A stretch of 38,843 nt of DNA from positions 1 to 38,843 of the forward strand of contig JBEKVQ010000005.1 in the NCBI GenBank assembly GCA_049997815.1. Reading direction: 5' to 3'. This DNA is from Minisyncoccia bacterium. GTDB lineage: Bacteria; Patescibacteriota; Minisyncoccia; UBA6257; GWB1-50-10. A program made the position numbers and the translations under genes. Within the stretch, counting starts at the first letter, position 1, and the number at the start of each line of letters is the position of its first letter. The notes beneath the pieces are model-generated. The model had not been told where the DNA came from. It saw only the letters and a list, made by a program, of their open reading frames with translations, and did no database searches. Of this stretch, positions 406 through 29,968 are shown in pieces.

Positions 406-574
406 CAAACAAAAGAAGCTGGATAATATGCCAGATTCTTTTGTTTTATGGTGTCGGGGTCGAACCACGGAGAGGGGTCGGGAGAACACGCTCACGGTTT
501 CCCGTGTAGGAAAATAGCGAAGCGTTAGAAACCGAGGGTTTCTAAGGAGCGAAGCGACGTTCGATTCCCAGCAA
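385..574 (+). mobile_element. Putative ~174-bp non-coding mini-element integrated in the tRNA-Val 3' end
   Basis: GTTCGATCCCAGCAA (385-399) recurs as GTTCGATTCCCAGCAA (559-574). An inverted target-like copy lies at 452-466. Core 467-558 is homologous to the minus strand of 28026-28119. Confidence 0.7.
407..446 (+). terminator. Hairpin/terminator directly after tRNA-Val
   Basis: AAACAAAAGAA.CTGG-loop-CCAG.TTCTTTTGTTT. Confidence 0.6.
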
Positions 575-592
575 TGTTGCTATAATAAATCG

Positions 593-25869: not shown

Positions 25870-27984
25870 ATGCCGAAAAAAACCGTTCCGAAAAAAAACG
25901 TAGAGCCGGTTATCGTTGACGTAAGGAAACCGAACTTCAATTACGAACGGCTCAACAAACCGCAGAAACTCAATCTGGCTCACATACCCCGGGCCAAGCC
26001 GCCCCGTTTCATAATTTTAAAAAGAACGCTTCTCGCGATACTTTTCGCCGGACTTTTCGGCCTTGTTGCCGCAATCGTGCTGGTTGTGATAAATCTCCAA
26101 ACGATAAGGGCCACAGTAACGGAGAGCAGTGGGCAGATAATCAGTAATTTCGCTTCGTCAGCCAGTGCGCTCAAAAGTTTTGAACCGGATACGGCCGTAA
26201 ATCTGCTTCAGGAGAACGATCAGTCATTTTCGGACATCAATAACGCCATAAAGAAGGGTGGCATCCAATCGTTCCTGAGCGCCGTCGGCAACCTTATTCC
26301 GATGGTGAGCAATGCATTCGGGTTTCTCGGACAAGCGACGAACCTAAACATAACTTTCTTGGAACTGGCCCAAAACATCCAAGATTTGGAAACGAACGGC
26401 TTCAAATATTTTCAAAGCGATGGACAGGGCCTCTTAACCGCGCTAAAAAACACCCATACCCTAATCCAGCAGATCAGCGAGAAAAGCCAGGACGTGAAGA
26501 ACAGCACCACGAACCTGAAGAGTCTATCGCCGCTCTTCGGAAAAATAGATCAGGACGTAAGCGACCAATATTTGAAATACTCGAGCGAGCTTTTTACCTG
26601 GGACAAGATGCTCGTTAATCTCACGAACCTCCTGGGTTCGGAAACCGACCGCCATATCCTCGTCTTCTTCCAAAATCCGTCGGAGGTCCGCCCGGGCGGG
26701 GGATTCATCGGCAGCTATGCCGATATAACGGTAAATAGCGGCCAAATGAAACAGATGGATGTGCACGACATCTACGACCCCGACGGCCAACTCGCCTTAA
26801 AGGTCATCCCGCCGGAACAACTTCAGACCGTTACGACCGATTGGGGCGCCCGGGATGCCAACTGGTTCTTCGACTTTCCAACCTCCGCCAAGACCGTCAT
26901 CCGGTTCATGGAGGCCTCCAAAATGTATTCGGAAAAGAACGTGACGTTCGATGCCGCCATTGCTTTGAACATAAACGTCGTGAACGACCTGCTCTCCGTA
27001 ACGGGCCCGATACAACTTACGGATTACAATCTGACGATAGACCAGAATAATCTTCTTGAGGAGGTTCAGCGTTCAGTCGAGGCCGGCGCGGACAAAAAAG
27101 CCGGTCAGCCGAAGAAGATATTGATGAAATTGGCTCCCATTCTGCTTCAAAAATTGAACGACCTTTCCACCGCCGACCGGCAAACTCTGTTCGACCGGAT
27201 AAAAGAACGAATAGCGAAAAAGGACATAATGCTTTACGCCAAGGATCCCGATATGGCCGCATTCCTGTCGACGAACGATCTGGACGGTTCGGTTTACGAA
27301 ATGCCGAATAATTTCTGGGGAACGTACCTCGCGGTCGCGAATGCGAACGTCGCGGGCGGCAAGAGCGACGCCTTTGTGGACGAGAGGGTGACCGCGAACG
27401 TGGACGTGGATACGAACGGAAATACTTTCACGAACGTGCAGGTCGCGCGAACCCACAACGGGAATCTAGAGAAAGACCCCTGGTGGAAGGCAACTAACAA
27501 CGATTTCATGCAGATATTCGCCGAACCGAACTCAACGCTGGTTGCGATGACGGGGAACGACGTTAAGCCAAAGTACCAAACAATGGACTACACTAACTCC
27601 AATTACATGACGAATCCGGACTTGGCGGCGACGGAAAAGGGAGAGATCTTCCTCTCCAATCTGAAGACCTGGCTTCGCAACGAATTCGGAAAGAACGTCT
27701 TCGCCACATGGCTCTTGCTTCCGGCCGGCCAAACCAAAACCTTGAACGTTCAGTACCAAACCACCTATAATAGCCCGACTGCCCTGGGCCCGGGCCAGGC
27801 CTACACTTTCATCTTCGAAAGGCAGGCCGGAGTGAAGAACAGTTTGGATGTGACGGTGAATGCACCCTTCAAATATTACTGGGCCGAATCTAACGACACC
27901 GCTTTCCATTATACGAACGACGATCCGGACAAGAGAACGACTCTCACGCTTACTCTGAAGAAGAAGACGGACGACCAACAATAA
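25870..27984 (+). CDS. DUF4012 domain-containing membrane-anchored protein
   Basis: TM anchor; FQNPSEVRPGGGFIGSY, RDANWFFDFPTSA and NVAGGKSD motifs. Confidence 0.88.
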   Translation: MPKKTVPKKNVEPVIVDVRKPNFNYERLNKPQKLNLAHIPRAKPPRFIILKRTLLAILFAGLFGLVAAIVLVVINLQTIRATVTESSGQIISNFASSASALKSFEPDTAVNLLQENDQSFSDINNAIKKGGIQSFLSAVGNLIPMVSNAFGFLGQATNLNITFLELAQNIQDLETNGFKYFQSDGQGLLTALKNTHTLIQQISEKSQDVKNSTTNLKSLSPLFGKIDQDVSDQYLKYSSELFTWDKMLVNLTNLLGSETDRHILVFFQNPSEVRPGGGFIGSYADITVNSGQMKQMDVHDIYDPDGQLALKVIPPEQLQTVTTDWGARDANWFFDFPTSAKTVIRFMEASKMYSEKNVTFDAAIALNINVVNDLLSVTGPIQLTDYNLTIDQNNLLEEVQRSVEAGADKKAGQPKKILMKLAPILLQKLNDLSTADRQTLFDRIKERIAKKDIMLYAKDPDMAAFLSTNDLDGSVYEMPNNFWGTYLAVANANVAGGKSDAFVDERVTANVDVDTNGNTFTNVQVARTHNGNLEKDPWWKATNNDFMQIFAEPNSTLVAMTGNDVKPKYQTMDYTNSNYMTNPDLAATEKGEIFLSNLKTWLRNEFGKNVFATWLLLPAGQTKTLNVQYQTTYNSPTALGPGQAYTFIFERQAGVKNSLDVTVNAPFKYYWAESNDTAFHYTNDDPDKRTTLTLTLKKKTDDQQ

Positions 27985-28145
27985 TGAATAACATCAGGAA
28001 TTTTTGCATAATTGCCCAGATAGACGTCGCGAGTTGCCACACGGCAACTCGCTCCCTAACACCCAGCGGTTTTAGTATTTCCGCCACGGGAAAACTCCCG
28101 TTTTCCCGACCCCTTTCCCGTCAATGTGGGCAAACAAAACAATAA
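27984..28145 (+). pseudogene. Displaced lepA 5' end (14 codons) continuing as a 53-aa ORF through the inserted element
   Basis: MNNIRNFCIIAQID versus LepA MNNIRNFCIIAHID; ATG overlaps the upstream stop codon (TAATG). Confidence 0.75.
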
Positions 28146-28210
28146 TCAACTGACCATCGGACAAATCTATGAACAATATAAGAAACTTCTGCATCATTGC
28201 CCACATTGAC
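28026..28210 (-). mobile_element. Putative 185-bp mini-element integrated in the lepA 5' end and supplying a replacement start
   Basis: Target duplication 27984-28025 / 28169-28210. GTCAATGTGGGCAA (28120-28133) is the exact reverse complement of 28197-28210. Core is homologous to 467-558. Confidence 0.75.
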
Positions 28211-29968
28211 CACGGCAAGAGCACGCTGGCCGACCGTTTTTTGGAACTCACGAAAACGGTGGACAAGCGCCATATGCGGGCCCAGTATCTGGACCAGCTG
28301 GAGCTTGAACGCGAGCGGGGAATAACGATAAAAATGGCCCCGGTCAGGATGAACTATGCCGTAAACGGCGTAAATTACGAGTTAAATCTCATTGACACGC
28401 CCGGCCACTCGGACTTCGGCTACGAGGTTTCGCGGGCGCTTGCGGCCGTTGAAGGCGGAATTCTCCTCGTAGATGCCACTCAGGGAATTCAGGCCCAGAC
28501 ACTGGCCAACTTCCGGGCCGCGAAGAACTCCGGACTTACCGTCATCGGAGCGATAAATAAGATCGACCTCTTCAAAAATCCCGGCGACCGGGAAACGTTA
28601 AATCACTTGCGGGAAGAAGTGGCCGAGCTCATCGGCGTAAACGGGGAAGAAATTCTTTTCGTTTCCGGAAAAACCGGAGAGGGAACGGAAGAACTCCTCC
28701 AAAGCGTCATCCAAAAAGTAAGACCGCCACGGGAAAGTTTAAAAAACCTGAACCGCGCCCTTATCTTTGATTCTTTTTACGACGACCATAAGGGCGTCAT
28801 CGCCTCAGTGCGGGTCTTCGACGGGGAGATGGATGCGACGAAGAACGTCTATCTGGCGGCGCCGGACACGACATCGAAGATAAAAGAAGTGGGATTTTTT
28901 AAACCGCAAGTCCAGGCCGCTCCCAAAATCAAAGCGGGCGAGATCGGTTACATCGCAACCGGTATCAAGGATACTTCGCTCATCAAAATCGGCGACACCG
29001 CCATCGTCGCCAGCCATCATCCCGACAAGATAAAATCTTTTATACTGCCCGGTTATAAAGAACCTCAGCCGGTGGTCTTCGTTTCTTTTTATCCGGAAGA
29101 GAATGAGGATTACGAACTTTTGAAGAAGAGTTTGGAAAAATTGAAACTGAACGATTCGGCGCTCGCGATCGAACCCGACCAGAACGAAGTGCTGGGCCGG
29201 GGATACAAGGTGGGATTTTTGGGCCGGCTTCACTTCGAGATAACGGCCGAGCGGCTGAAGCGGGAATTCAAAGTCGGAACGGTGAGCACCTTCCCGTCGG
29301 TTATCTATAAAGTAAAAACAAGGAAGGGCTGGCAAACCATCGTGAAGCCGGAAGAACTTCCGCCGGAGTATGAAGAAATTTGGGAACCGATGACGAATAT
29401 TACCATTCTCGTCCCGCCGGAATATCTGAATAACGTCTATCCGCTCCAGGCCAGATTCCGATTCACGAAAATCACAACGCACACATTCCAGGACCAGACC
29501 GAGATAAAGGCGGATATGCCGCTCGCGGAACTCGTGAGCGATTTCGACGACCAGCTGAAATCGGCCACCGCCGGCTTCGCATCCTTCAGCTACGAATTGG
29601 CCGATTATGTGAAGGCCGACATCGTTAAAGTGGACATTCTGGTCGCGGGAGATACCGTGCCCGGTCTCTCGAGATTCTTCCCGACGAACACCGTCGGGAA
29701 AGAAGCGCGAAGGATGGTGGAGAAACTTAAGGAAACCCTCCCGCACCAACAGTTCGCCCAGCCCATTCAGGCCAGGGCCAACAATAAATTCATCGCCCGG
29801 GAGGACATTCCCGCGATGAGAAAGGACGTAACGGGCTATCTTTACGGCGGCGACCGAAGTCGGAAGATGAAGCTCTGGAAAAAACAGAAAAAGGGCAAGA
29901 AAAAGCTTCAATCCCGAGCCCAAGTGAGGATTAGTCCGGCCATCTTCAAGGAACTCATCAAGAAATAG
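28169..29968 (+). CDS. lepA: Translation elongation factor 4 (LepA)
   Basis: IRNFCIIAHIDHGKSTLADR, ERERGITIK, DTPGH, NKID, GFLGRLH, RKDVT..LYGGD..RKMKL..KQKKGKK. Confidence 0.99.
   Translation: MNNIRNFCIIAHIDHGKSTLADRFLELTKTVDKRHMRAQYLDQLELERERGITIKMAPVRMNYAVNGVNYELNLIDTPGHSDFGYEVSRALAAVEGGILLVDATQGIQAQTLANFRAAKNSGLTVIGAINKIDLFKNPGDRETLNHLREEVAELIGVNGEEILFVSGKTGEGTEELLQSVIQKVRPPRESLKNLNRALIFDSFYDDHKGVIASVRVFDGEMDATKNVYLAAPDTTSKIKEVGFFKPQVQAAPKIKAGEIGYIATGIKDTSLIKIGDTAIVASHHPDKIKSFILPGYKEPQPVVFVSFYPEENEDYELLKKSLEKLKLNDSALAIEPDQNEVLGRGYKVGFLGRLHFEITAERLKREFKVGTVSTFPSVIYKVKTRKGWQTIVKPEELPPEYEEIWEPMTNITILVPPEYLNNVYPLQARFRFTKITTHTFQDQTEIKADMPLAELVSDFDDQLKSATAGFASFSYELADYVKADIVKVDILVAGDTVPGLSRFFPTNTVGKEARRMVEKLKETLPHQQFAQPIQARANNKFIAREDIPAMRKDVTGYLYGGDRSRKMKLWKKQKKGKKKLQSRAQVRISPAIFKELIKK

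Follow-up and report, generated by a model that had tools for sequence, protein, structure and literature searches.

Positions 28026-28210 of a contig from a Minisyncoccia bacterium (GenBank assembly GCA_049997815.1, contig JBEKVQ010000005.1, positions 1-38,843, forward strand; this whole stretch of 38,843 nucleotides [nt] is called the window here) are an insertion just inside the 5' end of lepA, the gene of elongation factor 4. With a probability of about 80%, we take this insertion to be one copy of a family of tiny (about 110 to 190 bp), protein-less, folded insertions of Patescibacteria, each carrying a spare gene end. Such an element would enter a conserved gene a few dozen bases in from one of its ends and supply a spare copy of that end; here it would sit between lepA codons 14 and 15, in DNA encoding the GTP-binding loop. 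The conclusion is built on the layout of the locus, the empty sites of relatives, the covarying fold of a conserved core, the complementarity of an internal piece (the anti-piece) to the target, the synonymous divergence of the gene ends, the wide spread of the family, and the existence of a lepA lineage within it.

An earlier note, made from the letters of the window alone, had reported that lepA has two starts, and direct reading of both 42-nt stretches confirmed it. Codons 1 to 14 of lepA are present twice, in frame, as a direct repeat (27984-28025 and 28169-28210) with a start-to-start distance of 185 nt. The two copies share 33 of 42 bases, and each of the 9 differences falls on a third codon position; 8 are synonymous, and the remaining one changes His (CAC) to Gln (CAG, 28017-28019). 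The chance of at least 33 matches in 42 is 6e-13 for a single pair and about 5e-4 across all window pairs, and the chance of all nine differences falling on third positions is 5e-5. Therefore, chance is excluded as an explanation for the two-copy layout. The stop codon of the upstream DUF4012 gene (27982-27984) overlaps the ATG of the displaced lepA copy, as the note had also stated and as the list of open reading frames (ORFs) and the Pfam match bear out. From the displaced start, a 53-codon ORF reads through into the element. It had no NCBIfam or Pfam match and is probably an incidental product, ending 23 nt ahead of the real lepA start.

Next, the lepA loci of the source genome (G000; 744 kb, 99% complete) and 29 relatives were compared. 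Within the genus (G001 to G004), lepA was found in G001, G002, and G004 and not in G003, which is 85% complete. A single start was present at 28 of the 30 loci, two starts being found only in the source genome and in G024, a member of another genus. The DUF4012 gene abuts lepA also in G001, G002, G004, and G013, and in the three genomes of the same genus it abuts or overlaps the single lepA start with no insertion. Therefore, the upstream copy holds the ancestral place, and 28026-28210 is the insertion. The view of the earlier note that the upstream copy is the original start is thus supported, and the empty alleles it proposed to look for are present among relatives. The lepA body just past the junction was closest to G002 (56/60 and 133/150), which was also the best fit for codons 4 to 14 of the displaced copy (29/33). 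The intact 42-nt start matched G004 at 38/42 positions versus 31/42 for G002. The displaced start and the body thus look G002-like and the new start G004-like, a contrast that is suggestive only at such small counts. At typA, which has an insertion of its own in the source genome, G001, G002, and G004 have none, and the promoter-like upstream region of G001 resembles, as judged by eye, the region before the displaced copy.

Of the 185 bp inserted, 143 nt separate the two lepA copies, and these comprise a hairpin (P1), a conserved core with two further hairpins (P2 and P3), the anti-piece, and a spacer (Table 1). The arms of P1 are an inverted repeat of 10 nt with 100% complementarity, and this helix is also part of the minimum-free-energy fold. 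Two stretches of the core (28076-28086 and 28109-28119) are conserved and unpaired. The anti-piece is 100% complementary over 14 nt to the intact lepA copy, 63 nt away, and 87% complementary over 15 nt to the displaced copy. A scan for promoters and terminators gave, inside the element, no promoter-like site on the lepA strand and no terminator. A scan of 27800-28400 against Rfam 15 at E<=10 returned four implausible sub-threshold matches, none at the gathering score of its family. No recognizable coding content was found in the 185 bp beyond the 53-codon ORF, in line with the statement of the earlier note that the inserted unit has no gene. What that note overlooked is the content of the 143 bp, which are a conserved, folded, multicopy element with a target-complementary piece. 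An 8-nt repeat, AACAATAA (27977 and 28138), was considered as a target duplication that would include the upstream copy and was rejected, since no comparable repeat was found at the typA or tRNA copies. In the scheme that we propose, the ancestral start would remain as a dead stub, still coupled to the upstream gene, and lepA would now use the imported start at 28169, with the operon promoter upstream most likely still driving its expression.

Table 1. Coordinates of the lepA insertion, its flanking genes, and other copies of the element in the source genome
Feature	Position	Strand	Description
DUF4012 gene	25870..27984	+	704-aa ORF; Pfam PF13196, 76.6 bits (cut-off 28)
Displaced lepA codons 1-14 (T_L')	27984..28025	+	CAG at 28017-28019; ATA at 28020-28022
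Read-through ORF, 53 codons	27984..28145	+	From displaced start into element; stop 28143-28145
Left end: GTC, then hairpin P1	28026..28052	+	Arms 28029-28038 and 28043-28052; loop 28039-28042
Conserved core, 67 nt	28053..28119	+	P2, 28056-28063 with 28068-28075; P3, 28087-28095 with 28100-28108
Anti-piece, 14 nt	28120..28133	+	Exact reverse complement of 28197-28210, the last 14 nt of the intact copy
Spacer, 35 nt	28134..28168	+	Between anti-piece and new lepA start; contains stop of 53-codon ORF
Imported lepA codons 1-14 (T_L)	28169..28210	+	Right end of insertion at 28210/28211
Intact lepA (elongation factor 4)	28169..29968	+	599-aa ORF; TIGR01393, 676.8 bits (cut-off 533.9), residues 3-598
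Diverged copy	452..576	-	nhmmer E=3.5e-08; behind tRNA-Val(CAC) 334-406
typA (BipA) copy	G000 C12:13933-14096 (L002/L085)		typA by TIGR01394
rpsI copy	G000 C6:53768-53887	-	Diverged; at 3' end of gene read as rpsI (ribosomal protein S9), last codons duplicated

An assembly artefact fusing the lepA alleles of two strains, a risk raised in the earlier note, could produce two starts, and contigs built from short words do break at the repeated core. Of four peat-metagenome runs, three gave contigs that reproduce both junctions. In these three runs, spread over two years, one contig covered 27600-28078 with 0 differences, and a right-side contig, again with 0 differences, covered 28093-28600 in two runs and 28389-28600 in the third. 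The depths of the left and right contigs were equal (16.6/16.7, 40.6/38.5, and 5.45/5.11), and the contigs broke only within the repeated core; the fourth run gave shorter pieces only. No contig in the four runs joined the DUF4012 gene directly to the lepA body, skipping the element. Moreover, the unique anti-piece on the right-hand contig matches lepA, and the same layout was found in five other genomes. The probability of such an artefact is close to negligible.

The RNA of 27984-28210 had a predicted fold that was unusually stable (z=-6.2 versus shuffled sequences), with P1 and P3 formed and the anti-piece paired with the start region. Such a fold would suit a regulatory device of the host, in which a leader peptide and a folded RNA (the anti-piece with codons 10 to 14) control lepA translation, and the 53-codon ORF, coupled to the upstream gene and ending just before the real start, would suit it as well. 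However, the insertion is missing from 28 of the 30 lepA loci, and the would-be leader peptide has no family match. The same unit is also found antisense behind tRNA genes and behind the rpsI 3' end, so that it cannot act on translation there. We give this explanation a very remote chance.

The core was present in 7 copies at 94 to 100% identity in the 744-kb source genome, and a profile search added 6 diverged ones, making 13. Their neighbors were tRNA-Pro, -Met, -Leu, -Arg, -Val, -Trp, -Asp, and -Leu(CAA), typA, and the rpsI 3' end (the names rpsI, rplK, MetRS, fusA, and typA-like, here and below, were read from translations rather than assigned by a family scan). Every readable copy had the same order of parts: displaced gene end, P1, core, target-complementary piece, short spacer, and intact gene end. 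The lepA insertion fits this order, its covarying P2/P3 core included. The start of typA is duplicated as in lepA, at the same codon of the GTP-binding loop, and its displaced copy again has CAG for His.

The direct repeats of a gene end flanking foreign DNA, as at tRNA-borne islands, could alternatively be the scar of a larger integrase-borne island or prophage in lepA, from which an internal deletion removed all but 143 bp between attL and attR; the source genome does hold one serine and one tyrosine recombinase. However, the same covarying unit of about 110 nt was found between the repeats at all of the more than 40 sites examined, none of them with a gene. Independent deletions would not leave the same conserved structure, and the cores are up to 100% identical across genera. 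A full-length element with both the core and an integrase gene was not found among the 71 loci screened. A deletion scar is most unlikely.

The distribution of the core was examined in 61 genomes, namely, the source genome and 60 relatives from its family and order. It was present in 32 of them, with at most 11 matches per genome, and identities of 99 to 100% were reached in other genera. A 46-nt degenerate pattern of the core matched 32 stretches among species-representative genomes. Wherever their titles named a taxon, it was a Patescibacteria metagenome-assembled genome (Jorgensenbacteria, Colwellbacteria, Harrisonbacteria, Paceibacterota, and others), several titles saying only "bacterium." The same pattern had 0 matches in viral contigs. 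Further targets in relatives were rplK, a class I aminoacyl-tRNA synthetase gene (methionyl-tRNA synthetase, MetRS), the 5' part of tRNA-Leu, fusA, and a typA-like gene. The hairpins of the core covary: in an alignment that included the diverged copy at 452-576, 94.9% of the cells were paired, and 7 of 17 pairs were changed on both sides, with 44 such cells. None of 500 shuffles scored as high, and slid controls were far lower.

A pattern joining the GTPase motif to the beginning of P1 was also searched for in 401 genomes of the order. There were 11 such places in 10 genomes and 0 in a reversed control. Seven places in six genomes were true duplications, at lepA in G000, G024, G143, G261, G279, and G386 and at typA in G000; the other four were unrelated. 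Duplicated lepA starts, which the earlier note had proposed to count, were thus present at 2/30 loci and in six of 401 genomes; what the note missed is the wider family that hits many gene ends. P1 of the lepA copy matched that of the lepA copy in G143, from another family of the order, at 22/26 positions and that in G279 at 20/26, with a compensatory change, versus only 13/26 for the typA copy of its own genome. For the core, the lepA copy agreed with the typA copy of its own genome at 68/68 positions and with the tRNA copies at 64 to 66 of 68, versus 60/72 for the lepA copy of G143. Therefore, P1 and the anti-piece follow the target across genomes, whereas the core is homogenized within each genome. 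There is a lepA-specific lineage, with a common P1 and anti-piece, in two families of the order. At the lepA loci of G279 (L081) and G386 (L080), the core is deleted, and what is left is P1, together with an anti-piece-like stretch in G386. These relics keep the displaced start and P1, which indicates that elements decay in place without losing the spare start. In G261 (L077), the intact lepA encodes ..AHIDSGKS..; the residue following Asp is Ser, whereas it is His in the other lepA genes examined, and the junction of the displaced copy is shifted by one base to match.

The divergence between displaced and intact ends was then compared over the last 11 codons of both copies at ten insertions in GTPase genes (lepA in six genomes, typA of the source genome, one typA-like gene, and two fusA genes). 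Pooled, there were 60 differences, 55 of them at third positions (binomial probability, 4e-21) and 53 synonymous. Because 53 of the 60 are synonymous, the spare ends would have evolved as working gene ends elsewhere. On this pattern, at lepA and in the pooled insertions, the earlier note appears right that the repeat is not a recent local duplication and that the functional 5' end came from a diverged lepA allele carried by the 185-bp element. The simplest reading of these sequences is that the functional lepA end had served a working gene of another lineage before it arrived with the element.

The one nonsynonymous change at lepA has a wider meaning. A confident repeat was present in 46 distinct copies. 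In 15 of these, the displaced copy had a purine in place of a pyrimidine at position -7 from the junction, and in 8 it did so at position -6. These 23 changes were without exception transversions (T to G, 14; T to A, 6; C to G, 2; and C to A, 1), and positions -1 to -3 never differed between displaced and intact copies. In 4 of the 10 GTPase cases, this signature appears as a His codon changed to Gln, and in one fusA case, it is a change from Ile to Ser at the same distance. The His-to-Gln difference in lepA therefore belongs to a family-wide signature and is not a stray mutation. The earlier note had the 8 synonymous differences right and overlooked the ninth in this respect. The intact copy fitted the anti-piece better than the displaced copy did in 24 of 32 copies, equally well in 5, and less well in 3. 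A mismatch to the anti-piece at -6/-7 was found at the displaced end in 24 of 41 copies and at the intact end in 1 of 41. In a tandem copy (L033), the middle repeat carries the variant end. The mismatch could mark the site of strand exchange, keep the anti-piece free, or travel with the element; the tandem copy hints at the last.

Several results, from the identity counts to the search for an enzyme, weigh against the element being a mobile carrier of foreign gene ends. An identity test of native versus foreign origin went in the expected direction for lepA and was not significant alone, with little power at 33 to 42 nt. For typA, the two copies were about equally far from the relatives, so that identity counts do not discriminate. 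At some loci, the repeats are near identical and include noncoding flanking DNA (85 nt with 4 mismatches in L021, 64 to 65 nt in L026, and 63 nt in L093). Such repeats suggest that the end was duplicated locally or came in from a very closely related strain, and such events thus also happen. In each genome, the spare start has the sequence type found locally (FCII in the source genome and FVII in G143), which indicates that it does not travel far with the core. The near-identical repeats and the local type of the spare start would agree with an on-the-spot origin of the lepA repeat, in which only P1, the core, and the anti-piece were inserted and the first 42 nt of lepA and its leader were copied locally and then drifted. 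The minimal unit between repeats can indeed be P1, core, and anti-piece alone (L012, L017, and L026), and insertions with long target duplications, their repeats spanning start or stop codons, are described for restriction-modification genes (PMC2853133). However, a dead copy should change at all codon positions, which is at odds with the third-position bias at lepA (9/9) and in the pooled set (55/60), and the sequence before the intact start is unrelated to the DUF4012 end that precedes the displaced start. Local duplication is a distinctly unlikely origin for the lepA repeat.

No gene for a dedicated enzyme accompanied the core. When the flanking ORFs (1,823 ORFs at 71 loci) were clustered, no mobility gene recurred, and translation GTPases made up the largest cluster (39 loci). 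Reverse transcriptase, found in 26 of the 61 genomes, did not track the core (15/32 genomes with it versus 11/29 without; Fisher P=0.61), nor did serine recombinase, found in 24 (14/32 versus 10/29; P=0.60). The multicopy genomes G019, G027, and G032 have neither, and G048, with 11 matches to the core, has a reverse transcriptase match and no serine recombinase. Y1, TnpB-like, and IS110 transposases (PF01797, PF07282, and PF01548) had 0 matches in the 99%-complete source genome. A single Xer-like tyrosine recombinase, encoded in the C4:41485-41997 region of the source genome, was found in 59 of the 61 genomes; being near-universal, it discriminates nothing and is compatible with any mechanism. 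The source genome has three GIY-YIG genes, and a small GIY-YIG-like ORF, judged by eye, was near the core at 4 of 71 loci. RNA-guided nuclease homing was rejected, because the insertion rebuilds an intact, perfectly matching target beside the element, so that the occupied allele would cut itself; this makes any nuclease-based drive unlikely. A model with a tRNA primer and a stop of reverse transcription was rejected as well, since the junction, by our numbering, lies between tRNA positions 52 and 53 and not at A58 and since protein genes are also targets. In addition, neither an intermediate or circle nor an empty allele of this strain was found among the contigs, which, unlike raw reads, would not show rare variants or empty or circular forms, and the first acquisition of a new kind of target together with a matching anti-piece is left unexplained.

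Side observations on candidate enzymes are as follows. In G027 (C3:105849-106518, L014), a core copy lies 87 nt from the single Xer-like tyrosine recombinase gene of that genome. It is the only such adjacency seen and may be due to chance. In the source genome, the sole gene for a serine recombinase (470-aa frame) and one for a reverse transcriptase (357-aa frame) are 2.4 kb apart at C1:66722-70148. This region may be a retroelement or mobile island, with no core copy nearby. A second reverse transcriptase is encoded at C7:23686-24213.

As for how such elements spread, we suppose that they move between genomes into the same conserved site, with a break exactly at the junction. The mobile form would probably be a folded single strand or a small circle, in which the spare gene end pairs with the anti-piece and so mimics the target duplex. 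The enzyme would be supplied in trans by the host, the near-universal tyrosine recombinase being a candidate only. Junction-precise recombination of a folded single-stranded or circular form is thus favored, although not strongly.

The same element might instead spread by homologous recombination alone after DNA uptake. The displaced copy and the gene body would then serve as the left and right homology arms, the folded insert would loop out, and no site-specific enzyme would take part. The failure to find a linked or co-occurring enzyme agrees with this, as does the choice of targets, which are the most conserved DNA of the genome, as homology across genera would need. The homogenized cores also show active recombination between copies within a genome, and long-target-duplication insertions are reported by Furuta et al. 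mostly from naturally competent species (PMC2853133). However, the switch from foreign to native sequence occurs within a few bases of the lepA junction, the body being G002-like from its first base (56/60), whereas crossovers made by RecA would be expected mainly within the long body of the gene, and arms of 20 to 42 nt are very short for RecA. Homologous recombination cannot create a new target with its own anti-piece either, and it leaves the conserved fold, the anti-piece, and the -6/-7 signature unexplained. This route is possible but doubtful. A bolder version of the folded-element reading is a programmable, protein-less insertion device, in which the pairing of anti-piece and spare end is a built-in guide or target mimic for an enzyme of the host or acting in trans, at any matching conserved sequence. 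Retargeting would then need only a changed guide and spare end, and the -6/-7 mismatch would mark strand exchange. We hold this version tentatively and consider it rather improbable.

The folded element shares features with several known systems. Integrative elements with a surrogate gene end include Gifsy-1 in lepA of Salmonella, e14 in icd, and P4-type islands in tRNA genes. As in those, the inserted DNA sits within the end of a gene, direct repeats are made up of the displaced and the intact end, the imported end keeps the gene functional, and the site recurs in different genomes. A 42-nt gene-end repeat and a rebuilt lepA of 599 aa were found; an integrase or recombinase of its own was not. 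In contrast to those elements, the insertion is only 185 bp long with no integrase and no cargo, one core serves dozens of targets, and an inverted piece of the target is present. In CTX, the phage strand folds two inverted dif-like sites into a hairpin that mimics the chromosomal site. CTX phage integrates by the Xer recombinases of the host (PMC3442271). Like CTX and other integrative mobile elements exploiting Xer (IMEX), the present element has two inverted target copies, about 95 to 110 nt apart, that can form a mimic of the target duplex with a mismatch near mid-stem. It also has no recombinase of its own, and it rebuilds its target, which allows tandem copies (L033). Its displaced or spare end pairs with the anti-piece over 14 to 15 nt, as is general in the family. 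It differs in having many gene-end targets rather than dif and in having no phage genes. The Xer-like recombinase in 59 of 61 genomes neither supports nor excludes a reaction of the XerC/XerD type.

The attC sites of integrons conserve structure over sequence, have an imperfect stem with position-specific mismatches, and recombine with a double-stranded partner. They are folded single-stranded recombination sites (PMC4792948). The present elements likewise conserve structure more than sequence and have an imperfect stem with position-specific mismatches. In contrast to attC, they have no context of an IntI-type integrase or cassette array, their stem is copied from the target, and, as judged by eye, they do not fit the R-box consensus. 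Insertion with long target duplication is another relative in form (Nobusato 2000, as cited; Furuta, Abe, and Kobayashi 2010, PMC2853133). It shares direct repeats of more than 30 bp, the lack of a transposase, a frequent position across a start or stop codon, and mostly uptake-competent hosts (PMC2853133). It differs in its restriction-modification cargo and near-identical local repeats, whereas here a folded noncoding unit lies between copies that resemble orthologues. Near-identical copies of the recipient sequence were not found at lepA (33/42) and were found at L021, L026, and L093.

MITEs (miniature inverted-repeat transposable elements) and small structured repeats, such as the repetitive extragenic palindromes and their mosaic elements (REP/BIME), the enterobacterial repetitive intergenic consensus (ERIC), and Correia elements, form a further class. 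They too are small, noncoding, multicopy, folded, and nonautonomous. Unlike MITEs, the present elements have no constant terminal inverted repeats and no short fixed duplication: their inverted arms vary with the target, their repeats are 16 to 85 nt long, and they always lie inside a gene end beside a spare copy. Because the arms are target derived, the element is not a MITE. Target choice by a guide is known from the DNA guides beside the end hairpins of IS200/IS605, the bridge RNA of IS110, and the pairing of exon-binding and intron-binding sites (EBS-IBS) in group II introns. An internal stretch complementary to the sequence beside the insertion point is common to these and to the present family. 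However, no cognate transposase was found in the source genome, the family showed no association with reverse transcriptase and no Rfam intron match, and the guided systems are not known to carry a spare gene end.

Other copies in the source genome showed further variation. The diverged copy at 452-576 has a displaced tRNA-Val 3' end adjoining it and an extra small hairpin within its core. Two copies, at C3:62555-62733 (L007) and C3:52021-52253, have a tRNA-like left arm with no tRNA on the right and precede small ORFs of 28 and 48 codons starting ..TLV(Q/D)DVRTFF... Both look rearranged, and either an exchange between copies or an insertion at a look-alike site may have produced them. A related subfamily of the core, in which P2 is different and one more hairpin is present, was found beside tRNA-Asp and tRNA-Leu(CAA) (C3:69361-69431 and C9:12868-12940), and one of its copies is placed back to back with the copy at tRNA-Met. 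A mini-hairpin rich in GC, about 19 to 20 nt long and nested in P3 or elsewhere, was seen at C1:88659-88750, C3:62555-62649, and C3:52021-52177 and in L030 and L111, and the same motif lies inside the tRNA-like arm in L016.

We found no published description of such folded gene-end elements in a search that covered the literature outside supplementary files. The family is widespread in the ultra-small bacteria of the candidate phyla radiation (CPR) and apparently undescribed. If the reading given here is true, some of the smallest bacterial genomes harbor a mobile element of great compactness, consisting of folded DNA of about 110 nt and a borrowed gene end, that invades essential genes at their most conserved sites, namely, tRNA T-loops, the GTP-binding loop of translation factors, and the ends of ribosomal protein genes. 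Essential genes would survive the insertion because the element brings a replacement end. For annotation, it would account for false second starts, pseudo-tRNA pieces, and small spurious ORFs, and for phylogeny, it would mean that marker genes can have a few dozen foreign bases at either end. The cores, with identities of up to 100% between genera, would trace the exchange of DNA among uncultured CPR bacteria. Finally, a target-complementary piece without a protein would suggest a nucleic-acid-guided choice of site, which would be of technical interest if confirmed.

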